Under the pieces are notes generated by a model. The model ran no database searches, was not told where the DNA came from, and was given only the letters and a program-made list of their open reading frames with translations. Shown in pieces: positions 47,880 to 64,000 of a stretch of 64,000 nt of DNA (the stretch's first letter is position 1; each line of letters begins with the position of its first letter). The DNA is from Planctomycetota bacterium. Lineage in GTDB: Bacteria > Planctomycetota > UBA8108 > SXIK01. The stretch covers positions 5,696,001 through 5,760,000 of the forward strand of contig OZ244999.1 of NCBI GenBank assembly GCA_965223265.1. Direction: 5' to 3'. The position numbers were made by a program, and so were the translations under genes.

Positions 47880-48881
47880 ATGGACGCACAAACGAACCGC
47901 ACGAGAGACGACAAAGACGTCATCCTCGAAACAAAGGCGTACGCCCAGGAACGTCCTTGGTTGAGTTGGTGGCACCTCGCGTCGACGCTCGCTATCTTCT
48001 GTTTTCTCGCGGCGTTGACGGTCGTCGTCGATTCCACCGCGATCAAACTCGCGGCGAGCTTCCTGCTTGGGCTCGTCATGGTGCGCATCTTCATTCTCTA
48101 CCATGACGCCGAGCACGGGACGATCTTTCGTGGCTCCCGTCTGGCACGCTCGATCATGTACGTCTATGGCCTGTTCGTCCTCAATCCACCGAACATCTGG
48201 CGCCGCTCGCACGACCATCATCACAGAAACAACGCCAAGATCTTTGGTGCCAGCATTGGCTCCTACCCAGTCATGACACGGGAGAACTACGAAAAAGCTT
48301 CCCGCCGCACGCGCCTTGCTTACTCGATCTCAAGACACCCGCTGACGATCGCGTTAGGCTATTTAACGATCTTCTTCTGGGGTATGTGCTTACGATCATT
48401 CCTCGTCAACCCGAAAGCACACTGGGACTCGGCCTTGTCGATCGTGCTTCACGTCAGCCTCGTCATCACGCTTCTGTTCATTAGCCCAGGTGTCGTGCCA
48501 TTTCTCGTCATCATTCCAATGGTAGTCGCGTCGGCAATGGGGGCTTACCTGTTCTATGCTCAGCACAACTTTCCAGCTGTGAAGCTCCGCGATCGAGAAA
48601 ACTGGGACTACTACTTCGCCGCGCTTCACTCCTCGAGCTTCATCCGCATGGGCGCCCTGCTTAACTGGTTCACCGGCAATATCGGGTACCACCACGTCCA
48701 CCATCTCAACGCGAAGATCCCGTTCTATCGATTGCCGGAAGCCATGAAGGGGATCAAAGAACTCCAGTCTCCAGGTGAGACATCGCTCGGCATACTCGAC
48801 GTGTGGCGCTGCTGCCGGCTCAAACTTTGGGATGCGAAGGCCGACCGCATGATCTCGTTTCGCGAGTTGGCTCGCCCCTGA
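47880..48881 (+). CDS. Membrane fatty acid desaturase (Des-like)
   Basis: His boxes HDAEH, HDHHH, HHVHH; FYAQHNF; IPFYRL; AAGGA RBS before ATG 47880. Confidence 0.92.
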   Translation: MDAQTNRTRDDKDVILETKAYAQERPWLSWWHLASTLAIFCFLAALTVVVDSTAIKLAASFLLGLVMVRIFILYHDAEHGTIFRGSRLARSIMYVYGLFVLNPPNIWRRSHDHHHRNNAKIFGASIGSYPVMTRENYEKASRRTRLAYSISRHPLTIALGYLTIFFWGMCLRSFLVNPKAHWDSALSIVLHVSLVITLLFISPGVVPFLVIIPMVVASAMGAYLFYAQHNFPAVKLRDRENWDYYFAALHSSSFIRMGALLNWFTGNIGYHHVHHLNAKIPFYRLPEAMKGIKELQSPGETSLGILDVWRCCRLKLWDAKADRMISFRELARP

Positions 48882-49174
48882 GCCTCACAAACCAAAACGA
48901 TCGCGTCGGTCGAGCGACGACTCGCCGACCTCGCGGACGTTCGCGTCGCTATCGACTGCTTGAGTAGCCACGAGCTGAAGACCGCCCCCTATGATGGCGC
49001 CCAATACCTTCGGCGACTTGGGCTCGACGCGAAGACACCGGCAGCTGCGCCGTCAAATTCGACGCCGAGCTCAAGAGCACCGGCGTCGCAAATCTCCGCC
49101 GTCCAGCGCGGTCGACCCAATGAGAGCGTAGCGGGGAGTCGCCGCGCCGGCCGTCTTGCACCGCGATTCGATGG

Positions 49175-49365
49175 CGCGCGATTGCGTGGGGGTGGATCCT
49201 CGAGCGCCTGCCGCTTCTCTGCCTGATCTTCGTCTGCTTCGTTTGCTTCGTTCGCTTCTGTTCAAGATTCAAGAGATCAGAACAAGAGTTGAACGAAAGG
49301 AGCCCAAAGGAGCAGGCAATGCCGTGTGTCGTCCGGACGGCACGTAGGAGCGTGCGTGCTACTTT
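49175..49365 (+). repeat. Dispersed intergenic repeat copy (same family as 40600-40797 and 8150-8255)
   Basis: Near-identical GCGCGATTGCGTG..GGATCCTCGAGCGCCTGCCGCTTCTCTGCCTGATC.. module with extra 9-bp CTTCGT(T/C)(T/C)G units. Confidence 0.85.
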
Positions 49366-49391
49366 GAAGATCGGCGGCGATACGTGTCTAT

Positions 49392-50256
49392 AGTAGCAGG
49401 CACACGCCGCTTCAAGGCCGTGGGCGTGGCCGTGGGCGTGGGCGTGGGCGTGGGCGTGGGCGTGGGCGTGGGCGCCTCTTCAACGTAGCAGGCACACGCC
49501 GTGTGCCGTTCTGGAGGTGACCGCCGACTGTGACTGTGACCGCGAGTCGTCATCGCTCGTTCTCAAGAACTCCCAGCCTCTCCGTGTGCCGTCCGGCCTT
49601 GTCGACGTGAGCGTGGGCGTGGGCGTGGGCGTGGGCGTGGGCGTGGGCGTGGGCGTGGGCGTGGGCGTGGGCGTGGGCGTGGGCGTGGGCGTGGGCGCCT
49701 CTTCAACGTAGCAGGCACACGCCGTGTGCCGTTCTGGAGGTGACCGCCGACTGTGACTGTGACCGCGAGTCGTCATCGCTCGTTCTCAAGAACTCCCAGC
49801 CTCTCCGTGTGCCGTCCGGCCTTGTCGACGTGAGCGTTTGCGTGGGCGTGGGCGTGGGCGTGGGCGTGGGCGTGGGCGTGGGCGTTTGCGTGGGCGAGTG
49901 CATGGGCGTGGGCGTGGGCGAGTGCGAGTGCGTGGGCGAGTGCGTTTGCGTGGGCGTTTGCGTGGGCGTTTGCGTTTGCGTTTGCGTTTGCGTTTGCGTT
50001 TGCGTTTGCGTGGGCGTGGGCGTGGCCGTGGCCGTGGGCGAGGGCGAGGGCGAGGGCGAGGGCGAGGGCGTGGGCGTGGGCGTGGGCGCCTCTTCAACGT
50101 AGCAGGCACACGCCGTGTGCCGTTCTGGAGGTGACCGCCGACTGTGACTGTGACCGCGCGTCGTCATCGCTCGTTCTCAAGAACTCCCAGCCTCTCCGTG
50201 TGCCGTCCGGCCTTGTCGACGTGAGCGTGGGCGTGGGCGTGGGCGTGGGCGTGGGA
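49392..50256 (+). repeat. Tandem array of three 139-bp cores separated by variable G-rich hexamer tracts
   Basis: Cores at 49474-49612, 49697-49835 and 50088-50226 (one substitution in copy 3). Hexamer tracts of 9, 14, 42 and 4 units (GTGGGC with GTTTGC, GAGTGC, GAGGGC, GTGGCC variants). Confidence 0.92.
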
Positions 50257-50344
50257 ATATTCTGGTTCTGAATCTGTATCTGAATCTCCGCCTCCGCCTC
50301 TGCCTCCCTCTTGCGCCACCCGCTCCCAAGCACAATCTTTTCAC

Positions 50345-50386
50345 TTGAAATTTAGTTAATCTACAGATAATTTGTAGATTAACTAA
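50345..50386 (+). promoter_or_regulatory. AT-rich promoter with a perfect 14-bp inverted repeat (putative MarR operator)
   Basis: TTAGTTAATCTACA-gataatt-TGTAGATTAACTAA (50352-50386) ends on the A of the marR ATG; TTGAAA (50345-50350) lies 17 bp before TAATTT. Confidence 0.8.
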
Positions 50387-50853
50387 TGAAAAGCAACAAG
50401 CCTCAAAGACACACCGCCTATCAAACTCTCGTCACCCTCGTCCGTCTCGGCGGGCTCCTTCGCAAAGCCGGAGACCGGTTCTTCTCCGGCTACGGGCTGA
50501 CGTGGACGCAGTTCTGCGTCCTCATGGCTCTCAAGTACGAACTGCCGCGCGGCGGCACTCAGAACGAGCTTTGCGGCGCGCTGCTCGTCAAACCAGCCAA
50601 CATGACCGGGATCGTGCGACGAATGGAAGCCATAGGGCTTGTGACTCGCGAAGTTGATGCGGAGGACGAGCGCGTGTGGATCGTGAACATGACGACTCAA
50701 GGTCGCCGAACTCTCCAACAGATCGAATCAGCCTACTACCGCGATGCCGAACGCATCATGGGAGCCCGGTCAGAAACCGAGCTCAAGCGACTGTCGCTAC
50801 AGCTCGAACAAACCCAAGCTGCCGTGTTGGCGCAGACCGATCAGACCGTCTGA
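50386..50853 (+). CDS. MarR family transcriptional regulator
   Basis: GLTWTQFCVL, TQNEL..L.VKPANMTGIVRRME..GLVTR..DAEDER...V.MTTQG. Confidence 0.93.
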   Translation: MKSNKPQRHTAYQTLVTLVRLGGLLRKAGDRFFSGYGLTWTQFCVLMALKYELPRGGTQNELCGALLVKPANMTGIVRRMEAIGLVTREVDAEDERVWIVNMTTQGRRTLQQIESAYYRDAERIMGARSETELKRLSLQLEQTQAAVLAQTDQTV

Positions 50854-50907
50854 GACCCGCTGGATGCGCACTTCGAGGCGCCCCGGTGTCTGAGAGGAGC
50901 AGAAGCT

Positions 50908-51963
50908 ATGGTCAGGCTAAAGAATTTCTGGTACATCGCCGCACCGTCTGTCGAGCTCAAGCGTCGCCCGATTCGGCGCGTCGTCGAGGGCGAAACCGTG
51001 GCACTGTTTCGTGACACGCTGGGCAAATGTCACGCGCTGCGCGATCGCTGTGTGCATCGAGGTATGGCCCTTTCAGCAGGCCGGGTGGTTGGCAGCTGCA
51101 TCCAGTGCCCATATCACGGCTGGCAGTATGACAGCGACGGGCACATTCGCTCCGTGCCGGCTCTTTGCGACACTGAGGACCTTCCAACGGCGAGAACACG
51201 CTCGTTTCCGGTTCGCGAACAAGACGACCACATCTGGGTCTGGATCGGCGATGAAGAGCCGACCACACAACCCTTTCACTTTCCTCGCTACGGAGAGCAC
51301 GGCTGGTCCACCTTCTTCATGCAGACTCGTTTCAATGCGCCAGTCGAGCTGTGTCTCGAGAATTTCCTCGACGTACCGCACACACTCTTCGTCCACCCAG
51401 GCCTGTTCCGCAAAGACGAACTGAGGAACACCCGTGCCCAAGTGCGGACCTACAAAAACGGCGTCGAAGCGGAGTTCATGAATGAAGCGCCGCTGGAAGG
51501 CATTGGCCCACGGCTACTTTTTCCGCGCGGTACGAAGATGGAGCACACCGATCGCTTCATTCTGCCTTCGATCTCACGCGTAGACTATCGCTTCGGTGAT
51601 GCCTATCAGTTCATCATTTCGTCACAGTGCACACAGCGTGACGACGACGTCGTAGATGTCGTCACGGCGATCACCTGGCGACTCCCTCTGCCTGCAATTG
51701 CCGTTGGCCCATTCCTGCGCTGGTACTGCCGGCGTGTGATTCAGCAGGACGTCGAGACTCTGGAGATTCAAGGCGAGCAGTTGAGACGCTTCGGTCGCTG
51801 CGATCTTCACACCTCCGCCGACCTTCTTGGCCGGCAAATCTGCGAACTCCGACGCCAGGCGATAGAGGGATTGAACCAGCGAGTGGATGTCGACAACTCT
51901 GCGAGTGACGAGCGCCGAGCGCCGACACGCGAGTTCTGCAGAGAGATCGAACTTCGAATATAG
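50908..51963 (+). CDS. Rieske non-heme iron oxygenase alpha subunit (VanA/KshA-like)
   Basis: Rieske CVHRG and CPYHGW; mononuclear Fe motif ENFLDVPHTLFVH; C-terminal QD; AGGAG RBS. Confidence 0.92.
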   Translation: MVRLKNFWYIAAPSVELKRRPIRRVVEGETVALFRDTLGKCHALRDRCVHRGMALSAGRVVGSCIQCPYHGWQYDSDGHIRSVPALCDTEDLPTARTRSFPVREQDDHIWVWIGDEEPTTQPFHFPRYGEHGWSTFFMQTRFNAPVELCLENFLDVPHTLFVHPGLFRKDELRNTRAQVRTYKNGVEAEFMNEAPLEGIGPRLLFPRGTKMEHTDRFILPSISRVDYRFGDAYQFIISSQCTQRDDDVVDVVTAITWRLPLPAIAVGPFLRWYCRRVIQQDVETLEIQGEQLRRFGRCDLHTSADLLGRQICELRRQAIEGLNQRVDVDNSASDERRAPTREFCREIELRI

Positions 51964-51974
51964 CAAAACGAGGC

Positions 51975-52703
51975 ATGACGATGCTCCAAGGATCTGTGCA
52001 GCCGCGGCAATCCGTCTCTGATGACGACGTCGAACGCATGTATCGCCTCTTCTGCAATTACTACACACATGTAAGGCGAGACGTCTTCTATCGCGACTGG
52101 AAGGAGAAACATTGGGCACTCACGCTGCGCGACGAGTCAGGAGACCTTCGCGGCTTCACGACGCTCATGCTCTATGATCTCAAGGTTCTCGGAAAGCGTA
52201 TTCGTGCTGTCTTCAACGGCAACACCATCATCGACCGCGACTGCTGGGGAGAGCAGGAACTGGTGCGAACGTGGTGCACGTTCATGTCGACGCTCAAGAC
52301 GCAGCAGCCCGATCTCCCTCTCTACTGGTTTCTCATCTCCAGCGGCTACCGCACGTATCTTTTTCTGCCGCTCTTTTTCCGTGAGTTCTTTCCGCGCTAC
52401 GACCGAAGTACCCCGCCGCTCGAGCAGCACATCATCGACTCCCTGGGACGACTGAAATTTCCGGGGGAGTACCGTGACGGCATCGTACGTGTTTCCGAGC
52501 AGCGCGAGTGCTTTCGCTCAGACTTAGCGAAGCCATCGCCTGGACGCCTACGGAACGATCACGTCAAGTTCTTCGTGACCCAGAATCCAAACTTCGCACG
52601 AGGCGACGAATTGGTCTGCCTGACGGAGTTCTCCTTCGCCAACACGAAACGAATGGCCCATGAGAAACTCGCTGAGACGTTGATGGACAAAAACGTGAGT
52701 TAA
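51975..52703 (+). CDS. Hypothetical GNAT-like protein, GH3-operon associated
   Basis: F..D..EK..L....G.LRGFTT, VFNGNTIID..WG, YWFLISSGYRTY, RGDELVCL; fold assignment is inference. Confidence 0.7.
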   Translation: MTMLQGSVQPRQSVSDDDVERMYRLFCNYYTHVRRDVFYRDWKEKHWALTLRDESGDLRGFTTLMLYDLKVLGKRIRAVFNGNTIIDRDCWGEQELVRTWCTFMSTLKTQQPDLPLYWFLISSGYRTYLFLPLFFREFFPRYDRSTPPLEQHIIDSLGRLKFPGEYRDGIVRVSEQRECFRSDLAKPSPGRLRNDHVKFFVTQNPNFARGDELVCLTEFSFANTKRMAHEKLAETLMDKNVS

Positions 52704-52889
52704 CAGCCCGTTGAAACAGGGTTTCGTTCTCCGAACCGGCTCCCTCACGCTCAGCTCAGCTCGACCGCATCGGCACCCGCCATGTATGCCTTTTAGAAAA
52801 AGCTCGAAGATCACCCGCGCTTGCCACTGCTGCGGCGGATGCGAATGATCCGGTTATTCGACTAAAGCACTCTTTCGACAGGCCGTTAA
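52700..52889. mobile_element. Putative 190-bp MITE with imperfect terminal inverted repeats
   Basis: Left end TTAACAGCCCGTTGAAA; right end TTTCGACAGGCCGTTAA (reverse complement TTAACGGCCTGTCGAAA; 14/17 match); TTAA at both ends; no convincing ORF inside. Confidence 0.55.
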
Positions 52890-52908
52890 AAGCGTCTTCA
52901 AGCTACCA

Positions 52909-54411
52909 ATGATCACTCGCTGTCTCGGCAACGCTCTTTGGCTCCGGTCAAACCTCCGTCATGCAGCAGCATATCGCCGCGCCCTGAGCAATCCGCGTCG
53001 AGCTCAAGAAGAGATTCTCTTCGCTTTTCTCGAGCGCAACGCGACCTCAGCGTACGGGCGCCAATTTCGTTACGCCCAAATACGATCGGTGCACGATTTT
53101 CAGCAAGCCGTGCCAGTGGTCACCTACGACGACCTCGTGCCGTGGATCGATCGCATGCTGCACGGAGAGGAGAGAGTGCTGACGACGGAGGCTGTGCTCC
53201 GGTTCGAGAAGTCGAGTGGCTCAAATGGACCGGCGAAGTTCATTCCATACACCGAAACGCTGCTGCAGCAGTTCCGGGCTGCGATCGGCGCCTGGATCGA
53301 GGACATGTACCGTGCACGTCCGGGGCTCGCTTTCGGATCCCAGTATTGGTCCGTCTCGCCGATCGTGACCGAACGCGAGCACACACCTGGTGGCCATCCC
53401 ATCGGCATGGAGGACGACACTGAGTACTTCGCGCCGGCCGTTCGTCGTTGGCTCCGCTGGATCATGGCGGCCCCTGGAGCCCTCGCGGCCACGCAAGATG
53501 TCGGCGAACACCGGAGGCTCACGCTCGCTCACCTCATGCGCGCTCGCGACCTCCGGTTCATTTCGGTATGGAATCCAAGCTTCTTGACGCTACTCCTTGA
53601 GCAACTGCCGGCACCCGAGCTGGCGACGAAACTCTGGCCGCGGCTGCAGCTCATCAGCTGTTGGACGAGCGGCGCTGCAGCACGCGCAGTCGGCGACCTT
53701 GAGCGTCTCTTTCCGGACGTCGAGATTCAGGGCAAGGGACTCATGGCAACCGAGGGCGCCGTTTCGATTCCGCGCTTTCCGGACGCCTCATCGCCCTCTA
53801 CTCAAGTGACAATTCCCAGCCCTGCGCTGACGTCTCACTTCTTGGAGTTCATCGCCTCAGACGGCAGCGTTCACCTCGTGGGCGACCTCGACCCCGGAGA
53901 GACCTACCGCGTCGTCTTGACAGCGGGCAACGGATTCGCCCGCTACGACCTCGGCGACCGAGTTCGAGCCGCTCCACCACTGCCTGGCGAACGTGTCGCT
54001 CGCATCGAGTTCGTTGGCAGGGACAGCAACTTCACGGATCTGTGCGGAGAGAAGCTCAACGAGGTCTTCGTCGGAGACATCATCGAGGGCGTCGTTCAGC
54101 GGTTTGACGTCAACGGTATCGCCATGTTGGCCCCGGAGTGGGGCCAACCGCCTCACTATCTCCTCTTTGTCGACTCGCCCCAGGCTCCCACCATTGCAGC
54201 GGCAGTCGAAGATCGCCTCCGCACTTCGTTTCACTACGACTACTGCCGACGTTTGGGACAGCTCGGCCCCACCGAAGGGATTTACTGTCAGCGCGGCAAC
54301 GAAGCTTACCTCGGCGTGCGCGCTGCTCAAGGCATGCGCCTTGGCAACGTCAAGCCAACGTATCTTCGCCGCGAACTAGATTGGAGGAAACGGCTCGCAG
54401 CTCATGCGTGA
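52909..54411 (+). CDS. GH3 family acyl-adenylate/amide synthetase
   Basis: FQQAVPVVTYDD, FEKSSGSNGPAKFIP, ISVWNPSFL, QGKGLMATEG, HFLEF, ARYDLGDRV, F.GR...DLCGEKL. Confidence 0.9.
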   Translation: MITRCLGNALWLRSNLRHAAAYRRALSNPRRAQEEILFAFLERNATSAYGRQFRYAQIRSVHDFQQAVPVVTYDDLVPWIDRMLHGEERVLTTEAVLRFEKSSGSNGPAKFIPYTETLLQQFRAAIGAWIEDMYRARPGLAFGSQYWSVSPIVTEREHTPGGHPIGMEDDTEYFAPAVRRWLRWIMAAPGALAATQDVGEHRRLTLAHLMRARDLRFISVWNPSFLTLLLEQLPAPELATKLWPRLQLISCWTSGAAARAVGDLERLFPDVEIQGKGLMATEGAVSIPRFPDASSPSTQVTIPSPALTSHFLEFIASDGSVHLVGDLDPGETYRVVLTAGNGFARYDLGDRVRAAPPLPGERVARIEFVGRDSNFTDLCGEKLNEVFVGDIIEGVVQRFDVNGIAMLAPEWGQPPHYLLFVDSPQAPTIAAAVEDRLRTSFHYDYCRRLGQLGPTEGIYCQRGNEAYLGVRAAQGMRLGNVKPTYLRRELDWRKRLAAHA

Positions 54412-55615
54412 AGTCATAGAACGCACAAGGAAAGTTCGACGCGCACAGTTCTTCGATGAACGAAAGAGCCTCTTCCGGTCGCTCGATAGCCGGCCTGCAT
54501 TCTCGGATACGTCCGCGGCTACGTCCGCGGGTGCGATGCGCTTCGAACTGGCGACGCCAAGCGACGACGAAGCGCTTCGCGCGCTCCTTCGCGAAACTCC
54601 AATACCCGGTATGGCAGAAGTCGCGTTTTTGCGTGAGCCGAGCTACTTTCGCGCCGCAGCCGTGGCTGGCACCCACGTTCAAACGCTCGTCGCGCGCGCG
54701 GGCGGCCAAATCGCCGCGGTCAGTACGAGGGCCATTCGTCCAACTTTCATCAACGGCAGGCGCACCGACGCAGGTTACTTAGGAGACCTTCGCGTCCGGC
54801 CAGAGTTTCGCGGCACGACGCTGCTCGCGCGTGGCTACCGGTTCCTCCGCCGGCTTCATGACGACGGCCGCGCCCGACTCTACTCCACGATGATCATGGA
54901 AGGCAATCGCAACGCCCTGTCCACGATTGCGGCGAACCGCGCCGATCTGCCGTGCTACTCGGATCAAGGCCGCGTCTTCACCCCCATGCTGCACGTCCGG
55001 CGGTCTCGCAGAGTAAACCTGGCGAGATCCGAAACGCTCGAACGTGGTCGACCTGAGACTCTCGACGAGATCGTCGCGGCGCTGAACCGTGACCGTCTAC
55101 AGTTCGCTCCGGCGTATTCGCGCCATGACTTTCTCGGCGGCCGCTACGCCAACTTTTCTGTAGAGGACTTCTTTGTGCTGCGGCGCACCGGCCGCATCGT
55201 TGCCGTCGCGGGTCTATGGGACCAACGACCCGCACGCCAGACCGTAGTGACGCGATACTGCGGTGCGCTAAAGGCGCTCCGGCCACTGGTGAACTTACTG
55301 CGTCGTCCCAAGTTGCCGCAGCCACACACACCGTGGAACTATGCCTACGTCGCCTTTGCCTACAGCCGCGACACGGAAAGCTTTCGCAAAATTCTACGAT
55401 CCATCCATAACCACGTCGGCGGCGTTGGGCTCGAAGACGGGCGCTGCAGTGACATCGATTTCCTGATCATCGGTCTCCACGAAGATGATCCTCGCGCCGC
55501 CGTTCTCAGCGAATTTCGTACGACTCCATTCAGCGGTCGACTTTTCGCCGTGACTTTCGACGCCCCATTACCGTTCGATGGCCGCACCCCCTTCGTTGAG
55601 GCGGCTTTGCTATGA
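54404..55615 (+). CDS. GNAT-family acyltransferase-like protein
   Basis: REPSYF, GYLGDLRVRPEFRG, N..A..T, GLWDQR..RQ, GLHEDDP; start may be ATG 54536. Confidence 0.75.
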   Translation: MREVIERTRKVRRAQFFDERKSLFRSLDSRPAFSDTSAATSAGAMRFELATPSDDEALRALLRETPIPGMAEVAFLREPSYFRAAAVAGTHVQTLVARAGGQIAAVSTRAIRPTFINGRRTDAGYLGDLRVRPEFRGTTLLARGYRFLRRLHDDGRARLYSTMIMEGNRNALSTIAANRADLPCYSDQGRVFTPMLHVRRSRRVNLARSETLERGRPETLDEIVAALNRDRLQFAPAYSRHDFLGGRYANFSVEDFFVLRRTGRIVAVAGLWDQRPARQTVVTRYCGALKALRPLVNLLRRPKLPQPHTPWNYAYVAFAYSRDTESFRKILRSIHNHVGGVGLEDGRCSDIDFLIIGLHEDDPRAAVLSEFRTTPFSGRLFAVTFDAPLPFDGRTPFVEAALL

Positions 55616-56586
55616 AGGTACTTGACGATCGCTCCGATGTTCGAAGTCTTGTTTTCATCGCCGCGCTTCTTCTCTTGATCGGACTGCAGTGGTGTGGAGC
55701 GGCTCGAGACTCAGTTCTCTACGCCGCCACCCTTTGGCTCAGTTTTGTCGCCTGCATCGTCAATCACAATCACCAACACTGCGCGACGTTCTGTTCGGCG
55801 GTCGGAAATCGCCTCTTCGGCATTCTGTTGACTTTCTCAATCGGTCAGCCCGCGACGGCGATCGTTCCGATGCACAACCACAACCACCATCCGCACAACA
55901 ACTCGGCGCACGACTACGTGCGCGTCTCACAGGTCACCTATCGCTGGAATCTCCTCAATTTGCTTCTGTTTCCGTTCGTTGCGGTCAAGAACTATGCGGC
56001 CGTCAAATCTCAACAGATGCGGCAGTGGCGTCGACTCGACCCGCGCCTTTTCGCGCAACTGCGCTGGGAACGAACACTCTTCTACCCGACGCTGCTTCTT
56101 TTGGTGTTCGCTCGCCCGGTCGAAACCGTTCAGTTCTGCATCCTGCCTTATCTCTTCGGGCAGTGGAGCATCATCGCGATCAATCTCGTGCAACATGACG
56201 GCTGCGACGCCCAGTCCAGACATAACCACTCACGCAACTTCACCGGTCGGTGGCTCAACTGGTGGACACTCAACAACGGCTATCACACAGCACACCATAT
56301 GCGCCCACAGATGCACTGGAGCCGTCTGCCGACGCTTCACGCGGAGATCCAGGCGTCCATCCACCCTAAGCTGCGCCGAGGGTCGCTGCTGTGGACCCTC
56401 TTTCAATTCTATCTTTGGCCGGGTCGCCGCGCCCAGGTGGCGGAACTACGGCGCCCCGCTGTGCGACCCAGCTTGTCGGCAAGCGAAGCGGCGCCGGAGT
56501 GTGAGTCGATTCGGTTGGGCCAGAAGCAACAGCATCGGCGGCCAAGTTTGGAAACCGTGGGAAGTCAGGAGAGTCAAAACGCATGA
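55612..56586 (+). CDS. Membrane-bound fatty acid desaturase-family protein
   Basis: His boxes HNHQH, HNHNHHPH, NNGYHTAHH; NLVQHDG; WSRLP; ATGA coupling. Confidence 0.88.
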   Translation: MKVLDDRSDVRSLVFIAALLLLIGLQWCGAARDSVLYAATLWLSFVACIVNHNHQHCATFCSAVGNRLFGILLTFSIGQPATAIVPMHNHNHHPHNNSAHDYVRVSQVTYRWNLLNLLLFPFVAVKNYAAVKSQQMRQWRRLDPRLFAQLRWERTLFYPTLLLLVFARPVETVQFCILPYLFGQWSIIAINLVQHDGCDAQSRHNHSRNFTGRWLNWWTLNNGYHTAHHMRPQMHWSRLPTLHAEIQASIHPKLRRGSLLWTLFQFYLWPGRRAQVAELRRPAVRPSLSASEAAPECESIRLGQKQQHRRPSLETVGSQESQNA

Positions 56587-59500
56587 AACCGTTCTCCAAT
56601 CGAGCGCCGGCGAATTCAGCAACTACCGCGAAAGCTTCGGAGGTGTCGGAGCCACAACCCCCACAGCGCTGGCTGCGATGGTGGTTAGCAGCGGCCCTCT
56701 CGATCCTCGCTGCCATAGCGCTCCTGTTTTATCGCCACCAGAACATGTCAGCTGGTGTCGGCGGCCCCATCTCGCTTCCCAAGATACTCTGGCTTGCGTT
56801 CGCCGTTGGCACTTGGTTCGTCGTCCCCCCCTTTCTATGGCGCGACCGTCGCTTGAATCGTCCGACGCGTCAACTGTTCGGGTATTTTTGGATCGCCATG
56901 ATGGTGCGGGGCGTTCTCGAGATCATTCTCATTTACTTTTTCCACCACTGGACGCCCTGGTATGGCATCGCTCACGACCTCTTTTGCGTGCTACTGATCC
57001 TCGCACTACGTCGCCGTGTGCCGTCATCGGGTCCGGAGGCGACGAACGAAAGCCATCGAGCCCGCCGCTTCTCCTCGTCAATCGTTGTCGCACTCCTGGC
57101 CGAGACGGCGTTTGCGGCGATGTTTCTCCAGGCACAGGTGCACCATGAAGCGATCTACTTCGTCTCGTCCGCTTCGTCCTGGGGTTACGTCAACCTCACG
57201 ACCATCGCTGTACTCATGTTTCTGTACCCGGACCTGATCGCTATGCTGATCACGCTCTACTTTCCGGGTGTCTCCCGCGAGACTCCACGGGCGCTGAGGC
57301 TGGCAGGTGCCGTAGGTCGTTTCGCTACCGTGGTCCTGGTCGCTGCTGCCCTCTCCTTTTGGACGTGGATGCAGAGTGTCGAGCGAACCGCGCGGCAGTT
57401 TCAAGACGTCGGCTATCAAGTCGTCGACTCGTGTACACAATTCAAAGAAGACTTCGTGCTGGCCCGTCGAGATCGGATGGCAGACTTCATTGACTCGGGT
57501 GTAGCTACGTGGCGCCGTGTCTCGCGTCAGCACAACCATCCTTTCGAGATCCTCGAGTGGCAACCTGGGGGCGAAGAGGACCGACGCCCGCTCCTCGACG
57601 CGCTGCTCGAAATGCGCCACCGCTTCACCAGCCTGACGGCGGCGGCGTTCAAGATCCATCTCGTCGAGCGCTCCGATGACGAAGACGCCATCGTGCAGCT
57701 TCGTTTCGAGGTCAGTGGTGTCGAACGCAACCTTGCTGGGATCCCCGCGCTCCACGGCACTGACCGTGGACTACTTCGCTGCTCATTTCATCTCGGCGAC
57801 GATGGCCGTTGGCGGATCACGCAATCGTCGCTGCTCGAAGGGGTCTCTGTTCGCGGCAAGGCTCGTTCGTTTCGAGACGTCGCCGAAGAGCGTGGGGTCG
57901 CCTTCTTCATGGAACCAGACCGCCGCTTCCTTCCGGGGGAGAAATGCGACGCTCATCGCTGCGGCGACTATGGCAGACTCCACTTTCAAACCATGCGCCA
58001 CGCCTATGCAGGCTGCTCGACAGCCGACTACGACGGCGACGGGCATGACGACGTGCTTCTCTGTGCCGGAGGACGCTCCCGACTCTATCGAAACAAGGGA
58101 GACGGCACATTCCATGAGACCACGGCGCGAGCTGGCCTACCGGAGCTGTGGCACGTCAACACTGCCGGATTCGCTGATTTGGACAACGACGGCGACCAAG
58201 ACCTCTTCTTAGGTGCTTTCTACGGACAGAATCGTCTGTTCGAGAACATGGGTGGCGGAAGATTCAGGGAAGCAACAGAGCGCTCGAGTCTTGGTCGAGA
58301 CGACGCGGTCACGTGCTTTGCATTCTTCGACTACGACCGCGACGGCGATCTCGACCTTTACCTCGGCCGCTTCCTCGAAGCACGTCGCGAAATACCAGAT
58401 TCCTTTCTCTATGCCCGCAACGGCGAGCCCAATGTTCTCTACGAGAACGAAGGAGGGCTTCGGTTCCGCGACGTCACAAAGAAGGCCGGCGTGGGCGACC
58501 GAGGTTTAACCCTCAGTCTCGCAGCTGCTGACTATGACGAAGACGGCGACCAAGATCTCTATGTCGCAAACGACTTCGGCCGCAATCTCCTCTACGAGAA
58601 CCGCGGCGATGGTTCGTTCCAAGATGTGGCCAAACAACGCGGGGCGTTAGCCATTGGCGGCAGCATGAGCGCCAGTTGGGGCGACTATGACAACGATGGC
58701 AGACTCGATCTTTACGTCGCCGCGATTCGCTCCAACCAGCGCTGGTTTGTCCAGCCGATCACAGCACGGCGCGTCATCTTCAAATTCTTCCGCGAGGGGA
58801 AACTGGGAACGGACAACCCCGTACTCTCCGACCTCAGGAGCTACATGGGAAGAGACTGGGTCAACATCGGCAACCACGCTCTCGCGGGCAACTCGCTGCT
58901 TAGGCAAACGCCTGAGCACAACTTCACCGAGCAGGCTGAGCTGGCGCACGCTCGGCCCGCGGGTTGGTATTGGAGTTCCGGCTTCATAGACCTCGACCAT
59001 GACGGCGATCTTGACATCCTGGCGACGAACGGGTGGATCACGGGCAAGAAATCTCACGACTTGTGAGCTGAATTCAACACCGGTGCGGTCGCACCGGATC
59101 GCCCCTACAAGAGTGGCTACCTCTTCAGCGACGCCTTTCTGCGTGACTTCTCCTGGAACGGCAACGAGCGCAATCGTTTCCTTGTGAACATGGGCGAAGG
59201 CGTGTTCGTCGAGGCTGCGACTCCGTATGGACTCGATAGCATTCGCGACGCTCGAGGTCTCGCAGCGTCCGACTTCGATGGCGACGGAGATGTCGACTTG
59301 ATCGTCAATAACTACAACCGCCCAGCGCACTACTTCGCCAACGATGCGGCACGAGGCAACTGGCTACGCGTGCGCCTGCGGGGACGGACAAGCAATCGAG
59401 ACGGCATCGGAGCCACCGTGCGGGTTGAAACAGGAACGCACCGGCAAATGCGCGTCGTAACAGCGGGGAGCGGCTACGCATCGCAGTCTTCGCGGACGGT

Positions 59501-59669
59501 ACATTTCGGCCTTGGGACATACGACACCGTGGATCTCCTCGAAATCAAATGGCCGGGAGGCGATCGCGGCAGCGCAGTACGACAGAGTTTCAGGGACGTC
59601 AGTGTGAATCGGTTGCTGGTCATAGATGAACACGAGCATGAGCTATTCGCGATGGAGCCGTCACGGTGA
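56583..59669 (+). CDS. Membrane-anchored FG-GAP/CRTAC1 (ASPIC-UnbV) protein with in-frame TGA (probable selenocysteine at codon 828; 1028 aa)
   Basis: About 6-7 N-terminal TM segments; repeats DYDGDGHDD, DLDNDGDQDL, DYDRDGDLDL, DYDEDGDQDL, DYDNDGRLDL, DLDHDGDLDI. After TGA 59064-66 the frame stays open (AEFNTG..SWNGNERNRF..DFDGDGDVDL..SNRDGIGA..GSGYASQS..HFGLG..IKWP). The track ORFs 56583-59066 and 59184-59669 are in the same frame. Confidence 0.8.
59080..59097 (+). promoter_or_regulatory. Bacterial SECIS-like hairpin
   Basis: CCGGTGC-GGTC-GCACCGG: perfect 7-bp stem with a GGUC loop starting 21 nt after the UGA; resembles the E. coli fdhF SECIS upper stem (GGUUGC-AGGUCU-GCACC). Confidence 0.72.
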
Positions 59670-60697
59670 GGAGGGACGCAGTGATCAGTAGTCCAAGCGC
59701 ACTGCTCGAGAAGAACCCGGCCCGATTGCCGCTTCGAGAACTTCTCGATCAGGCTCGAGAGCACGCCAACTCGCCGAGGTCGTTGAACGTTGTTGCACCG
59801 ATCGCCACGGATCGATTCTTCATCTGCCCGACTGCGACACCGCTTTACTATACCTCACTCTACCGAAAGCTCTCCGAAGAGCAGGCGCGACGCTACAACC
59901 AGCTCACGGCGCTCTCTTTCAACGAGCTCATCATGGCCCTCGAAAGAAGCATCGCCCCAGTGCTTTTCGCCGCCCTACGCGGCGCAGCCTGGTTTCACCG
60001 TACCGATCCACCGTCCGAGCTTGTCGACTACTTCGAGTTCTTCGAAGCCGAAGAGCGTCGACACCTGCGTATGTGGCAGGCCCTGAACCAACTCGCCGAA
60101 CCCAAGTGGTATGAGGGCGAGAACGTCCATTTCTTCCAGACACGGACGCGCCCATCGTCAATGCTCCGAACACTCTGTTCGCGCCCCCACCTCGTTTCAA
60201 CAGTGCTTTGGATCATGCTCCTGCAGGAGGAGATGACGATGGAGTTAGCGCGCCGCTGTGCCAGAAGCTGTCTCGAACCACTCGAGCCTCGCTTCGGAGA
60301 GGCGTACCGCCTACACGTCGAAGATGAAGTTCGACATGTTCAGATTGACTGGTACGTGATTGAACACTTGCGTGCCGCGCAGAGCCCTCGGGTGCGCCGA
60401 TTGAACGCGAGGATAGTCCGATTCCTCGTGAAGACGTTCTTTCTGGCGCCACGTCGACTCGCTGTCAAGGTCGCCAAAGAGCTCGTCCGCGAGTTTCCGA
60501 GTCTACGGCCAAGCCTTTCACGGATGCAGAGGGAACTGAAGGGGCTCGGATCGGATCTTGAATACCAGCACATGATGTACTCGCGTCGAAGCCACCCTAT
60601 TTCGTTTCATTTGTTCGACTGCTACCCGGAATTTGAGGCCATGAGACACGTGCTCTTCTCCTACCAACCAGGTGAGTCTTCCCGTGCGCAGTCATAG
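59666..60697 (+). CDS. AurF/CmlI-like ferritin-fold diiron oxygenase
   Basis: TPLYYT..Y..L, FNELIMALE, EAEERRH, LLQEE, HVEDEVRHVQID; GTGA coupling. Confidence 0.82.
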   Translation: MRRDAVISSPSALLEKNPARLPLRELLDQAREHANSPRSLNVVAPIATDRFFICPTATPLYYTSLYRKLSEEQARRYNQLTALSFNELIMALERSIAPVLFAALRGAAWFHRTDPPSELVDYFEFFEAEERRHLRMWQALNQLAEPKWYEGENVHFFQTRTRPSSMLRTLCSRPHLVSTVLWIMLLQEEMTMELARRCARSCLEPLEPRFGEAYRLHVEDEVRHVQIDWYVIEHLRAAQSPRVRRLNARIVRFLVKTFFLAPRRLAVKVAKELVREFPSLRPSLSRMQRELKGLGSDLEYQHMMYSRRSHPISFHLFDCYPEFEAMRHVLFSYQPGESSRAQS

Positions 60698-61622
60698 CGG
60701 TGTGCCGTCAACATTTCCGATACCGACCGCGTGGAACGTGTCGATCATTATGGTGCAATGGCTTGCGTTCTTTGCATGCTGCTGGTGGGCTGCAAGGATC
60801 GAAACCTGGACGCAGACGCTTGGTCTGGCACTTGTGTTCGGCATTCTTGGCAACTCGATCTATTCCGTCCTTCATGAAGCGGAACACGGGATCCTTCTTC
60901 CGAACCGCCGCCTGAACGATCTCGCCGGTGTCATGATGGCGCTCCTCTTCCCGGCGCCGTTTCATCTGCTGCGGCAAGGACATCTCGGGCACCACCTCAG
61001 AAACCGCTCCGACGACGAAGCCTTCGACCTCGTCATCGAGGGCGAGCACCCCGTGTGGAAGCGCATTCAGTTTTACGGGATCATCACTGGTTTTTACTGG
61101 CTTGCCGTCGTGCTCGGCAACTTCGTAGCTCTCTTTGCGCCGACGCTATTGAGGTCTCAGTCGCTGCGGTTTGACAAAGCGACAGCGGCTCTACTCGATT
61201 CACTCAATCCACGCTATCTGCGCCTGATCCGCATCGAAGCATGTGCCGCGCTTGCCTTCCACACAAGTGTCGTATGGGCATTCGGCATCGCGCCAGCGAC
61301 CTACTTCTGCGTTTACTTCGGTTTCGGCTGGATGTGGTCCGCCATGCAATACGTACACCACTTCGGGACCGAACGCCACGTAGTGCGCGGCACTCGCAAT
61401 CTCTGGGTGTGGCGCCCGCTCGACGCCGTTTGGCTGCACCACAATCTGCATTTGAACCACCACGCCCACCCGACCGTTCCGTGGATTCACCTACCAAAGC
61501 TCAGCGAAGGCGCAGAAACGACACGAGGGTTTCTGCCGTGGTACTACCTCCGCATGTGGCGTGGCCCTCAGCCAACGGCGGAACACGTGGAGAACCGTTA
61601 TGCGGGACGGATCATTGACTGA
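60672..61622 (+). CDS. Membrane-bound fatty acid desaturase-family protein
   Basis: His boxes HEAEH, HLGHH, HHNLHLNHH; QYVHH; PTVPWIHLP. Confidence 0.88.
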   Translation: MSLPVRSHSGVPSTFPIPTAWNVSIIMVQWLAFFACCWWAARIETWTQTLGLALVFGILGNSIYSVLHEAEHGILLPNRRLNDLAGVMMALLFPAPFHLLRQGHLGHHLRNRSDDEAFDLVIEGEHPVWKRIQFYGIITGFYWLAVVLGNFVALFAPTLLRSQSLRFDKATAALLDSLNPRYLRLIRIEACAALAFHTSVVWAFGIAPATYFCVYFGFGWMWSAMQYVHHFGTERHVVRGTRNLWVWRPLDAVWLHHNLHLNHHAHPTVPWIHLPKLSEGAETTRGFLPWYYLRMWRGPQPTAEHVENRYAGRIID

Positions 61623-62355
61623 TCTAACGAATGATGCAGCGCAGAAGGTCTTAGGCGATTCGGTCGTCGGCCGGGAAGAGCCGACGCATGTAAAGCTGCA
61701 GCGGAAGGCCAACATAGGCACCGGGACAAAACTCTTCATGATCCTCACGGGCTACATTCCTCTCGCTCACGCCGTCTTCTGTGCGTTTCTGTTTGTCGCG
61801 GTCGTAGCCGCCGCTGGTCCAGCATGGGGAGTCGCGACGGCGCTCAGCGCATTGTACATAGCCCCGGCGCTTCTCGTGCGCTCGGTTCGTCGCGTTGCGG
61901 CAGTGCCCAACGGCCGATACGGCCCAGCGACGATCACATTTCGACTCTGGTGGTTCTGTGCGCAGTGCCAGCTTCTCTTCAATCGACTGCCGATCTTGGA
62001 GGAGTGCCTCCGCGTTGTCCCAGGTCTCTACTCCGCGTGGATCCGGCTTTGGGGCTCACGCGTGGGCTCGCTCGTCTACTGGGCACCAGGCGTCGTGGTG
62101 TTCGACCGACAGCTCTTGCGCATTGGGCATCGTGTCGCGTTCGGTGGCCGCGCCCACATAACGCCACACTACATGGCCAAAGACGACGACGGCTGCATCG
62201 AGCTCTGCATCGCACCGATCACCATAGGAGACGACGCCCTCGTTGGCGGCCTGTCGCTCGTTCCGGCCGGTGCGACCATTGAACCAGGTGGAGTGACTCG
62301 CGTTCGCGGCGTCGTCAAACCGTTCGAAGTCTACGGCAGGACGTCCGAAGTATGA
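61600..62355 (+). CDS. Membrane-associated acyltransferase-like protein (left-handed beta-helix)
   Basis: Two TM segments; LEECLRVVPGLYSAWIRLWGSRVG; IGHRVAFG, ITIGDDALVG, GATI hexapeptide-like motifs. Confidence 0.72.
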   Translation: MRDGSLTDLTNDAAQKVLGDSVVGREEPTHVKLQRKANIGTGTKLFMILTGYIPLAHAVFCAFLFVAVVAAAGPAWGVATALSALYIAPALLVRSVRRVAAVPNGRYGPATITFRLWWFCAQCQLLFNRLPILEECLRVVPGLYSAWIRLWGSRVGSLVYWAPGVVVFDRQLLRIGHRVAFGGRAHITPHYMAKDDDGCIELCIAPITIGDDALVGGLSLVPAGATIEPGGVTRVRGVVKPFEVYGRTSEV

Positions 62356-63119
62356 AATCGATCGGCAAACCACGGGCAGTCGAGGAAGGCGCCCGGAAGC
62401 GAAACCTCCTTGAACTCGTTTCGCGCGTGTGGCAGACGAAGCTAGCCCTCACCCTCGTTTTGCCGATTGCATTCTGCGTCTTCTACTTTCTGCTTCAGCA
62501 CCTCACCGAGATGCGAGTCACGACGTTCAAACTCACCAGCGTGGATCGCTGGATTCAGTTTCAACCGGAATGGATCTGGGTCTACCAGTCCGTCTATCTC
62601 GCGATGCCAATCGCACCGTGGCTTGCGGCCTCTAAGAGGGAGCTGAGGCGCTACGGAGAGGGTTTCGTGCTCCTGTCGCTGATCGGCTTCGGCATCTTCT
62701 CTCTCTATCCAGTCGCGGCCCCACGTCCCACGGACGTCCCGGCGCATGAAATGTACGCGCTATTGATCACTTACGACGGAATCGGCAACGCGTTTCCCTC
62801 TCTGCACTGTGCGTTGACATTTTACCATCTGCTGTTTGCGGAGCACACGACGACCACTCTGCTGTCACGGCGCGGACGACTGCTCTGGCGCGTCATAGGA
62901 GGCTTCTGGACCGCTGCGATCTGCTACTCGACGCTAGCAACGAAGCAGCACTATTTTGTCGACGTCGTAGCTGGTCTCGTGCTCGCTACGGCGGTGCACG
63001 CTGTTGTGTGGACGGAACGCACTAGGGCGACAAGCTTTCTCGCACTGCGGCGGCCAGCCGCTGTGCTGCACCCTACGGCGAGATCATGCACTCCAGCAAA
63101 CTCGCGAACCGACAACTGA
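62352..63119 (+). CDS. PAP2 superfamily membrane protein (Aur1/IPC-synthase-like)
   Basis: About 6 TM segments; YPVAAPRP, NAFPSLH, STLATKQHYFVDV; ATGA coupling. Confidence 0.85.
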   Translation: MKSIGKPRAVEEGARKRNLLELVSRVWQTKLALTLVLPIAFCVFYFLLQHLTEMRVTTFKLTSVDRWIQFQPEWIWVYQSVYLAMPIAPWLAASKRELRRYGEGFVLLSLIGFGIFSLYPVAAPRPTDVPAHEMYALLITYDGIGNAFPSLHCALTFYHLLFAEHTTTTLLSRRGRLLWRVIGGFWTAAICYSTLATKQHYFVDVVAGLVLATAVHAVVWTERTRATSFLALRRPAAVLHPTARSCTPANSRTDN

Positions 63120-63131
63120 AAGGAAGGTAAG

Positions 63132-63734
63132 ATGGATCGGATCAAATCAGGAAGTACTCTTCTCATCGGCGGCGCTCTATGCGCGACCTTCGCGTTCGCG
63201 ACCACTGTGAACGGTCAAGGCGACGAAGCCGAACACACAGCTCTTCGAGAACTCAAATCGATCTACGAAAAAGCTGTCAATGAAACACAGCTCGACTTAC
63301 TTGCCCCGCACTTGCACGCTAATTTCAGTGGGGTCATGGTCACAAACGACCCCGTAGCGAGCCAGAAAGACATCGAGGAGTACTGGCAATGGGTGTCGGG
63401 ACTCCTAGGCGACGGCGGCACGTATCGCGTCACACTCAATCCAGAGCGTAGCACTCTTCTCGGCAACTTTGCTCTGGCGAGAGGAACCGCAGACGAAGTC
63501 GCATCGATTCGCGGGAAGGAACTCAAGTTCCAGTCCAATTGGACCGCGCTTCTCGAGAAAGTCGATGGCGCCTGGAAGATCCTACGCGTTCACGGCTCCA
63601 TGAACCCAGTCGCGAATCCGTTTGCGAAAGCGAGCGCCAAGGCTGCGTCGTACACCAGCGGCGCTATCGGCGGTGGCATAGGGTTCGTTGTCGGGCTTTT
63701 GGTCATGTTGGTCACGCGCCGCAAGAAATCTTGA
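63132..63734 (+). CDS. Exported NTF2-like (DUF4440/SnoaL-type) protein with C-terminal TM anchor
   Basis: Signal peptide; FSGVMVT, ALARG, WTALLEKVDGAWKILRVHGSM; C-terminal TM segment plus RRKKS; AGGAAGG RBS. Confidence 0.8.
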   Translation: MDRIKSGSTLLIGGALCATFAFATTVNGQGDEAEHTALRELKSIYEKAVNETQLDLLAPHLHANFSGVMVTNDPVASQKDIEEYWQWVSGLLGDGGTYRVTLNPERSTLLGNFALARGTADEVASIRGKELKFQSNWTALLEKVDGAWKILRVHGSMNPVANPFAKASAKAASYTSGAIGGGIGFVVGLLVMLVTRRKKS

Positions 63735-63738
63735 CGCC

Positions 63739-64000
63739 TCAGCGCCTTATTTCCTCCTCGACGGGTATGGACGCTGAGCCATAGATTCGGCCAGCCTTCA
63801 CCGTCGCCACCGGCAGCAGCCGGCGGTGCCCAACGCGCTCCTGCTTCAGAGCATCGATGAACTTAAAGTCGCCCTCCTCGAGCGAGAACACGGCGACGTC
63901 TGCTTCAGCGCCCTCGCGCAGAGAACCGAGACCACCGGCAAAACCAAACACACTGGCAGGATTCTTCGTCGCGCGTTCGATCACGTCCTCGAGGGAAAGC
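63739..64000 (-). CDS. C-terminal end of a metal-dependent amidohydrolase/deacetylase (dihydroorotase-like), partial
   Basis: LEDVIERATKNPA..LGSLREGAEADVAVF..GDFKFID..LLPVATVKAG; runs off the right edge. Confidence 0.8.
   Translation of the reverse strand, partial: LSLEDVIERATKNPASVFGFAGGLGSLREGAEADVAVFSLEEGDFKFIDALKQERVGHRRLLPVATVKAGRIYGSASIPVEEEIRR

Follow-up and report, generated by a model that had tools for sequence, protein, structure and literature searches.

A MarR-led block of twelve planctomycete genes built around a GH3-family enzyme may assemble and tailor an amide-linked membrane lipid

The planctomycete GH3-like enzyme OlsH forms N-acyl ornithine with ATP and a free fatty acid as inputs (PMC12493201), and OlsI adds the second acyl chain in the ornithine-lipid route of Singulisphaera acidiphila (PMC12493201; PMC12971839). 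OlsH, described in the Journal of Biological Chemistry in 2025, is the only bacterial GH3-like enzyme known to us to have been characterised (PMC12493201). In cyanobacteria, the 'Rieske-containing' clusters of CylC homologues hold desaturases and acyltransferases, with neither a carrier protein nor an assigned product, and the authors of the survey propose fatty-acid-derived substrates (PMC8406957, 2021). Here we describe a block of twelve genes from a widespread family of uncharacterised gene clusters. It lies at 50386-63734 of a 64,000-nucleotide stretch (the window) from a Planctomycetota bacterium (assembly GCA_965223265.1, contig OZ244999.1, positions 5,696,001 to 5,760,000 of the forward strand). 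An earlier note on this DNA had proposed that the block makes or remodels an amide-linked membrane lipid or signal and had not recognised it as a characterised pathway. We found no characterised equivalent in the open-access literature searched.

The twelve co-oriented open reading frames (ORFs) on the + strand are:

50386-50853, + strand: MarR-family regulator, 155 aa (MarR_2 43.4 bits and MarR 36.2 bits in Pfam, both above the cut-off)
50908-51963, + strand: Rieske non-heme iron oxygenase, VanA/PAO-like, 351 aa (Rieske 75.8 bits, VanA_C 32.4 bits)
51975-52703, + strand: GNAT242, predicted GNAT-fold acyltransferase of an unnamed family, 242 aa (AlphaFold2, AF2, model)
52909-54411, + strand: GH3-family acyl acid amido synthetase, 500 aa (GH3 N-terminal domain 143.4 bits)
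54404-55615, + strand: GNAT403, predicted tandem-GNAT acyltransferase with an N-myristoyltransferase/Eis-like fold, 403 aa (AF2 model)
55612-56586, + strand: des1, membrane His-box desaturase/hydroxylase 1, 324 aa (FA_desaturase 92.9 bits)
56583-59669, + strand: FG-GAP/UnbV_ASPIC fusion read through one TGA, 1028 residues (FG-GAP_3 160.8 bits, UnbV_ASPIC 69.8 bits)
59666-60697, + strand: AurF/CmlI-like soluble diiron oxygenase, 343 aa (AurF 46.2 bits against a cut-off of 29.6)
60672-61622, + strand: des2, membrane His-box desaturase/hydroxylase 2, 316 aa (FA_desaturase 89.8 bits)
61561-62355, + strand: predicted membrane-anchored left-handed beta-helix (LbH, hexapeptide) acyltransferase, up to 264 aa (profile of orthologues)
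62352-63119, + strand: PAP2_3 (Aur1/sphingomyelin-synthase-like) lipid phosphate phosphotransferase or phosphatase, 255 aa (PAP2_3 49.1 bits, PAP2 42.6 bits)
63132-63734, + strand: NTF2-like (DUF4440/SnoaL_3) protein, 200 aa (DUF4440 25.8 bits, SnoaL_3 24.6 bits)

Seven of the eleven junctions overlap. From the first gene to the last, the distances are +54 nt (marR/Rieske), +11 (Rieske/GNAT242), +205 (GNAT242/GH3), -8 (GH3/GNAT403), -4 (GNAT403/des1), -4 (des1/FG-GAP), -4 (FG-GAP/AurF), -26 (AurF/des2), -62 (des2/LbH), -4 (LbH/PAP2) and +12 (PAP2/NTF2), where the two long overlaps hinge on the chosen GTG start. The earlier note had described twelve co-oriented genes with mostly overlapping stop and start codons, and the ORFs and junctions agree with that description; its gene family assignments were all upheld, as was a selenocysteine. 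A Pfam/NCBIfam domain scan found polyketide synthase (PKS), non-ribosomal peptide synthetase (NRPS), acyl carrier protein (ACP) or ketosynthase domains in none of the twelve proteins, as the note had also stated. Hydrophobic segments occur in six of the twelve (des1, des2, FG-GAP, LbH, PAP2 and NTF2) and are absent from the MarR, Rieske, GH3, AurF-like, GNAT242 and GNAT403 proteins. The block is followed by an ORF on the - strand; upstream, about 1.5 kb before marR is repeat-rich and apparently non-coding. An ORF in this interval (49703-50167, - strand, 154 aa), considered as a divergent neighbour gene, was rejected as most likely an artefact that translates (CGTGGG)n arrays.

The strongest evidence that these genes belong together is their recurrence. 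The full twelve-gene order is found again in two other planctomycete genomes (G048 and G005), at 38-64% amino-acid identity, and such recurrence lies well beyond what chance could produce. A third genome (G044) has a rearranged subset on a contig cut at its start, and two more distant planctomycetes have partial gene sets. Among 101 related genomes surveyed with the GH3 query, a match was found in 19 and an orthologue-level match (E ≤ 1e-117) in three, G048 and G005 among them; none of the three same-family genomes has an orthologue-level match.

The wider distribution was obtained from a scan anchored on GNAT242 in one genome per species (185,579 species), with counts taken from the best 80 of 229 loci. 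In these loci, the anchor is accompanied by GH3 in 70, the tandem GNAT in 61, Rieske in 58, FG-GAP/UnbV in 36, des1, des2 and the ~200-aa membrane protein TM200 in 22 each, PAP2 in 12, LbH in 10, AurF and NTF2 in nine each, and marR in two, counts that are conditional on the anchor gene and come from loci of which many are cut by contig ends. All four core genes (Rieske, GNAT242, GH3 and tandem GNAT) are present in 43 of the 80, and at least eight of 13 families in ten loci from seven groups: Planctomycetota, Rokubacteria, Elusimicrobia, Verrucomicrobiota, Acidobacteriota, Binatia and Burkholderiales. The core extends beyond this genome and phylum to more than ten phyla and is found, for example, in Acidobacteriota, Verrucomicrobiota, Rokubacteria, Burkholderiales and Legionella. 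Four Legionella species and Massilia glaciei (strain B448-2) are among the organisms in culture that have it. Conserved co-occurrence elsewhere, which the earlier note had made a test of its proposal, is strong both in the twelve-gene order and in the core. As an aside, one acidobacterial metagenome-assembled genome (L079) has a GNAT242 orthologue at 8855-9556 with an in-frame stop at codon 175, which could reflect a pseudogene, a sequencing error or recoding.

Gene fusions in the relatives connect the membrane part of the block. In Legionella moravica, the order is Rieske, GNAT242, GH3, tandem GNAT, a PAP2::FA_desaturase fusion of 490 aa, a desaturase and an alpha/beta-hydrolase; against GntB, an amino-acid hydroxylase with this fold, the fusion's desaturase half reaches 83 bits. 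A metagenomic protein of 597 aa (P0155) is an AurF::FA_desaturase fusion. Residues ~1-220 of the window FG-GAP protein (TM200) correspond to a separate membrane-protein gene of ~200 aa in other phyla, where it sits between the Rieske and GNAT242 genes. The natural fusions PAP2::desaturase, AurF::desaturase and TM200::FG-GAP link the membrane partners together. In Acidobacteriota, FG-GAP/UnbV is fused to an RnfD/NqrB-like membrane domain (943 aa, at 6118-8949 in L058; NQR2_RnfD_RnfE 28.1 bits against a cut-off of 27.7). Several further observations concern these loci. ORFs of 566 and 649 aa with an AurF-like match in two other genomes (G482 and G402) may be similar AurF::desaturase fusions. In the L. 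moravica locus (L051, 13218-14690 and 16847-18300), an AbiEi/AbiEii toxin-antitoxin pair comes after the PAP2::FA_desaturase fusion and the alpha/beta-hydrolase gene; a phosphatidylserine decarboxylase gene lies ahead of the cluster.

The soluble core enzymes keep the residues expected of their families. Each of 53 sequences of the Rieske protein retains the 2Fe-2S ligands C48, H50, C67 and H70 and the iron-binding histidine pair H158 and H163; D281 and D305 are invariant too. The protein's best NCBIfam match is the sterol 4-methyl monooxygenase SdmA, at 90.7 bits against a 600-bit cut-off. The domain scan found no dedicated Rieske reductase or ferredoxin among the twelve genes, so a housekeeping redox partner would be needed. 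The GH3 protein scores 143.4 bits to PF03321 and 29.4 bits to PF23571 (both above the 23.6-bit cut-off), with PF23572 just short of it at 20.9 bits. It aligns with plant GH3 structures over the SSGxxGxxKxIP and YRxGD motifs, and the alignment with AtGH3.15 spans the nucleotide-binding motifs 'SSGSNGPAKFIP' and 'RYDLGD'. All 46 cluster-linked GH3s examined have G104, R345, Y346, D350 and K482, and at least 90% of them have K110.

For the two GNATs, assignment rests on predicted structure. GNAT242 has 464 homologues and no Pfam or NCBIfam match; its AF2 model (predicted local distance difference test score, pLDDT, of 95) has a GNAT fold, with NatD (Z 12.2), the acyl-homoserine lactone (AHL) synthase LasI (Z 11.8) and the N-acyl amino acid synthase FeeM (Z 10.1) as effectively tied structural neighbours in VIA. 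The GNAT403 model (pLDDT 90) is a tandem GNAT whose neighbours are the tandem GNAT MAB_4324, the Eis-like 2hv2 and 2i00, and N-myristoyltransferases, with template-modelling (TM) scores of 0.44-0.68 in either normalisation. Acetyltransf_1 was detected in 13 of 38 GNAT403 orthologues, and only unnamed GNAT clusters lie near this protein in the Atlas structure search. N-myristoyltransferases use long-chain acyl-CoA. The cluster GNATs share their fold with FeeM, LasI and the N-myristoyltransferases (TM ~0.55 for the last), and OlsB-type enzymes are of the same class, but sequence-level family membership is lacking in each case and the matches are tied with ordinary acetyltransferases.

Compared with the OlsH system, the block shares a planctomycete GH3-like enzyme that sits with lipid enzymes in a small operon, which is the feature of OlsH (PMC12493201). 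Amide formation by OlsH is ATP-dependent and uses the free acid with no carrier protein (PMC12493201); the same is proposed for the window GH3, in which the nucleotide-binding motifs are conserved as in OlsH. The two systems differ in their partners. By the domain scan, the twelve proteins include no OlsI-type alpha/beta-hydrolase and no OlsG methylase, whereas the Legionella cluster ends in an alpha/beta-hydrolase, the fold of OlsI (a weak match, E 3.5e-4). Conversely, the OlsH paper makes no mention of the partners seen here (Rieske, two GNATs, desaturases, AurF, LbH, PAP2 and FG-GAP/UnbV), and the words 'Rieske', 'GNAT' and 'acetyltransferase' do not occur in it (PMC12493201). The window GH3 was rejected as an OlsH equivalog, scoring 36.5 bits to NF052613 against a 620-bit cut-off, and a genome-wide search with the OlsH model found a single GH3 gene in this genome (35.2 bits). 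GH3 matches are present in 99 of 301 genomes of the phylum, the OlsH-like ones at ~160-440 bits and none above the cut-off. In a GH3 tree, the four Legionella sequences fall within a clade of 15 with support 100 whose other 11 members are planctomycete, a placement that suggests transfer between phyla. An OlsH-like GH3 of another planctomycete (L131, G125:C58:2198-3691; 418.7 bits) has one TGA inside the match. We also considered the legionellol cluster of Legionella pneumophila as an equivalent and rejected it, since it is of the fatty acid synthase/PKS type and knockout of its GH3 gene left the product unchanged (PMC5640695).

The membrane module is likewise well conserved. All 13 des1 sequences share the His boxes H52/H54/H56, H88/H92/H93 and H225/H228/H229, and all 22 des2 sequences share H68/H72, H104/H107/H108 and H263/H264; des2 also has weak NCBIfam matches to GntB, CrtR and CrtW. 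In the PAP2 protein, S150/H152 of the C2 motif (SxH) and H200/D204 of the C3 motif (HxxxD) are invariant (9/9); its PAP2_3 score stands against a cut-off of 27 bits, and it weakly resembles phosphoinositol dihydroceramide synthase (E 9.4e-4). PAP2 transferases are not known to carry the C1 motif KxxxxxxRP, and no conserved Lys/Arg of this kind was seen in the alignment of nine orthologues. The LbH protein has two hydrophobic segments. Taken alone, it is below threshold (Hexapep_2 E 0.02, Hexapep E 0.64); a profile of nine orthologues matches the hexapeptide O-acetyltransferase 3ect (E 7.6e-9) as well as galactoside and maltose O-acetyltransferases and GlmU, and Hexapep is found in all nine at a permissive E ≤ 1 (best 7e-6). 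The predicted LbH identity thus holds at profile level only. The orthologues align only from residue ~48, and the true start is probably further downstream than 61561. The NTF2-like protein has hydrophobic segments at residues 8-26, an N-terminal leader, and 177-195, a C-terminal membrane anchor.

Every one of 12 sequences of the AurF-like protein keeps E93, E130, H133, E188/E189, H217, E221 and H224, a set of four carboxylates and three histidines that corresponds to the metal ligands of AurF. A single-sequence search of the PDB gave no match, and a profile was needed; it matches the solved AurF structures 3chh and 2jcd at E 5.5e-7, with the ExxH and HxxxExxH segments aligned with 3chh. The protein is above the Pfam AurF cut-off and has AurF as its nearest solved relative, but identity is low and its context is without aminobenzoate or chloramphenicol-type genes, in contrast to AurF and CmlI; the domain scan found no aminoarene pathway genes in the block. 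Since a relative is naturally fused to a membrane FA_desaturase, a lipid-bound substrate is suggested for this enzyme.

Two other comparisons bear on the membrane module. An AurF-related dimetal-carboxylate protein, a Rieske protein, a desaturase/hydroxylase, acyltransferases and the lack of a carrier are shared with the CylC 'Rieske-containing' clusters, for which the survey reports neither a GH3 nor a GNAT pair (PMC8406957). The window diiron protein is of the full-length AurF type (~340 aa), which sets it apart from the CylC homologues. In 151 genomes of the cyanobacterial phylum, the AurF-like profile gave nine strong matches (E ≤ 1e-27) and ~15 weak partial matches of 19-26 bits, in ORFs that might be of CylC type, mostly of 290-430 aa with three longer; kinship with CylC is a lead only. 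The second comparison is with sphingolipid tailoring, which employs Aur1/inositol phosphorylceramide (IPC) synthase, sphingomyelin-synthase-type PAP2 enzymes and dihydroceramide desaturase/hydroxylase. The window likewise has a PAP2_3 protein with SxH and HxxxD beside His-box desaturases, all of which would act on an N-acyl lipid. The likeness is at superfamily level only, as the block has no serine palmitoyltransferase, ceramide synthase or reductase, and the amide would be formed by GH3 rather than by the acyl-CoA-dependent ceramide synthase of the sphingolipid route.

The long FG-GAP/UnbV protein contains a putative selenocysteine. Its layout is a membrane domain (residues ~1-280, six hydrophobic segments), a middle domain of unassigned fold, an FG-GAP beta-propeller and UnbV_ASPIC; the Atlas search with the TM200 domain gave a best score of 0.78 and no family. 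The feature in question is:

59064-59097, + strand: predicted TGA selenocysteine codon (59064-59066) with a hairpin like a selenocysteine insertion sequence (SECIS) at 59080-59097 (7-bp stem, GGUC loop)

This TGA, which would place Sec at residue 828, is the only one in the frame, and 200 more codons follow it with an FG-GAP repeat and UnbV_ASPIC. It occupies the same column (HDL-U-AEFN) in all five fused planctomycete orthologues (the window, G048, G005, L053 and L056). The hairpin begins 13 nt past the UGA and shows compensatory changes in three of seven stem pairs among the five sequences, and its GGUC loop presumably resembles that of the E. coli fdhF SECIS. The genome encodes the selenocysteine machinery, with all scores above the curated cut-offs (selA 548.1, selB 324.1, selD 308.8 and tRNA-Sec 70.3 bits). 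Three observations count against a selenocysteine: the folding energy of the hairpin is ordinary compared with shuffled sequences (z -0.6), the SECIS has no Rfam family match, and homologues outside the fused subgroup are without the TGA, a Cys being nearby in only some of them. In an alignment that is ambiguous at this point, seven of 30 aligned non-planctomycete homologues have a Cys within ~4 columns (CPxYWY), the unfused planctomycete homologue L032 reads AECRSYW near the column, and acidobacterial homologues have no Cys nearby. Taken together, the conserved TGA, the covarying hairpin and the machinery make the selenocysteine codon at 59064, in the protein that the earlier note had named as Sec-containing, well supported. 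No report linking selenocysteine to FG-GAP/UnbV/ASPIC proteins was found in the open-access literature, and we know of no biochemical role for the UnbV/ASPIC domain.

From the predicted functions and the analogies above, we put at slightly better than even odds a pathway in which an N-acyl amide is assembled in the cytosol and is then oxidised, acylated and given a phospho-headgroup in the membrane. The soluble core of Rieske enzyme, GNAT242, GH3 and N-myristoyltransferase-like tandem GNAT would work at the cytoplasmic face. There, the likeliest acid substrate of GH3 is a fatty acid; the enzyme would adenylate this or another carboxylic acid and form an amide with an amine or amino acid, in the manner of OlsH with ornithine. 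The two GNATs would attach further acyl groups and the Rieske enzyme would hydroxylate. In the membrane, the amide-linked product would be desaturated or hydroxylated by des1 and des2, N- or C-oxygenated by the AurF-like enzyme and acylated by the membrane-anchored LbH protein, and the Aur1/sphingomyelin-synthase-like PAP2 protein would transfer or remove a phospho-headgroup. The periplasm-facing NTF2-like protein and the membrane FG-GAP/UnbV selenoprotein would be accessories on the outer side, possibly with a redox or binding role. The substrate class, the step order and the envelope destination in this scheme are what we infer. The amide-linked membrane lipid or signal of the earlier note is sustained in part: OlsH gives a precedent for such an amide (PMC12493201), while the window GH3 is no OlsH orthologue and the relatives with MATE and P450 genes leave the membrane destination less secure.

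A number of observations weigh against this membrane pathway. The GH3 protein is ~24-26% identical to OlsH-like planctomycete GH3s, and a FastTree phylogeny of 97 GH3s separates 68 cluster-linked from 29 OlsH-like sequences by a branch with support 100, where none of the 29 passes the 620-bit cut-off (best 440 bits). Because identity is low and the clade separate, the acid and amine substrates may differ widely from those of OlsH; plant GH3s, for their part, use aromatic acids or jasmonate. Known AurF relatives are arylamine oxygenases and not lipid enzymes. The GNAT fold matches of the models are generic for both proteins, with TM scores of 0.4-0.6 and Z scores of 10-12 tied among many. By the domain scan, genes for fatty-acid supply (ACP, ketosynthase or acyl-CoA ligase) are lacking in the block. 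The co-occurrence counts carry the dependence on the anchor and on truncated contigs given above. Finally, a P450 and a MATE exporter are found in addition in the relatives from Acidobacteriota, a sign that the product may be a small molecule for export.

This last point leads to the alternative that survives best, to which we would give perhaps one chance in a handful: in place of a structural membrane lipid, the same enzymology could yield a small molecule for secretion (an N-acyl amino-acid signal, surfactant or metal chelator, for example) that is tailored on its way out. The acidobacterial clusters end with the cytochrome P450 and the MATE efflux pump (in L058, at 14362-17604, both follow des1). 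MarR regulators often respond to small ligands, and N-oxygenation of the AurF type would fit a hydroxamate- or nitro-type headgroup. The patchiness among close relatives, with GH3 in none of the three same-family genomes, is typical of accessory metabolism. Against secretion, the domain scan found no transporter gene among the twelve, PAP2/Aur1-like proteins and His-box desaturases act on membrane-embedded lipids, and the PAP2::desaturase fusion argues for a membrane-resident substrate.

A narrower form of the membrane-lipid pathway, which we regard as a doubtful proposition, is that the cluster family makes a new class of bacterial envelope lipids: a ceramide-like N-acyl amide formed without a carrier by GH3, which would stand in for serine palmitoyltransferase and ceramide synthase, then desaturated or hydroxylated by the His-box and diiron oxygenases and given a phospho-headgroup by the Aur1/sphingomyelin-synthase-type PAP2 protein, with, in planctomycetes, the selenocysteine-containing FG-GAP/UnbV protein carrying out a redox step at the outer face. 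We think it improbable that the core instead lipidates a peptide or protein, with the GNATs acylating an N-terminus and GH3 ligating an amino acid to give a lipopeptide or envelope protein. The tandem GNAT does have N-myristoyltransferases among its best structural neighbours, and the top VIA match of GNAT242 is the N-terminal acetyltransferase NatD (Z 12.2), but these fold matches are tied with many unrelated GNATs, and both substrates of OlsH, a fatty acid and an amino acid, are used in free form (PMC12493201). No precursor-peptide or protease gene was seen in the block. A MarR-regulated catabolism or detoxification of aromatic or xenobiotic acids, in which the Rieske enzyme would demethylate or hydroxylate, GH3 conjugate and the GNATs acetylate, is very improbable: the VanA_C domain, the commonness of MarR-led aromatic-acid operons and the conjugation of aromatic acids by plant GH3s speak for it, but MarR is found in only two of the 80 loci, such a route would have no use for two membrane desaturases, PAP2, LbH and a periplasmic NTF2 protein, and the domain scan shows no ring-cleavage or reductase genes in the block.

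Control of the block was considered from two features of the non-coding sequence:

50352-50386, no strand: 35-bp near-perfect palindrome (arms 50352-50368 and 50370-50386, 17 nt each, 94% complementary)
52704-52908, no strand: spacer of 205 nt before GH3, without an Rfam match and missing in orthologous loci

The palindrome ends on the A of the marR ATG and is a candidate autoregulated MarR operator in the usual layout, through which the twelve genes would form one MarR-controlled biosynthetic block. A shared operator sequence was sought in two other loci (L030 and L031), each of which has its own palindrome with no common sequence; as leading gene, marR is conserved just in the two planctomycete loci with complete synteny. 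In L030, the distance between GNAT242 and GH3 is ~10 nt compared with 205 nt here. Since the sole sigma-70-like site detected in the region (52821-52849) lies in this spacer, an internal promoter before GH3 is possible. The scans for transcription signals were themselves uninformative: one promoter-like site was seen where 3.1 were expected, and 22 terminator-like sites where the expectation was 13.4 ± 3.9. An Rfam search at E ≤ 1 on 44000-64000 gave a chance miRNA match only and no SECIS family.

A function was first assigned to a bacterial GH3-like protein in 2025, for ornithine lipid, and the cluster described here represents a second, deeply separated GH3 subfamily. This subfamily is locked to two GNATs and a Rieske enzyme across more than ten phyla, among them the abundant soil groups Acidobacteriota, Verrucomicrobiota and Rokubacteria, and also in cultured species of Legionella and Massilia. 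Its product would probably be a new class of lipid or acyl-amide. Rule-based cluster miners would be blind to the cluster because it has no PKS, NRPS or ACP. The twelve-gene planctomycete form is the most complete version and lies in a closed genome, where marR and the palindrome would offer a built-in genetic switch, usable to turn the pathway on. The membrane FG-GAP/UnbV selenoprotein family is previously unreported in the open-access literature; if the ceramide-like proposal were true, it would be the first selenoenzyme of bacterial lipid metabolism and the first function for UnbV/ASPIC.

Further upstream on the same strand are a DEAD-box helicase gene (46151-47611) and a third FA_desaturase gene (47730-48881), which are not conserved with the cluster apart from one weak cross-match in L030; the pairing presumably resembles a cold-adaptation pair. 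Between these genes and the block, positions 49419-50260 hold arrays of the hexamer CGTGGG, of up to 43 copies, within a 223-bp repeat of 2.3 copies. A five-unit CGTGGG pattern occurs at 108 sites in the genome (67 forward and 41 reverse), and a reversed control gave none. The G3N3 spacing of the arrays may permit G-quadruplexes. Of the sites listed, the - strand has those at 0.4-1.8 Mb and at 8.57 Mb together with one at 5.01 Mb, and the + strand has the others, at 4.3-7.3 Mb.

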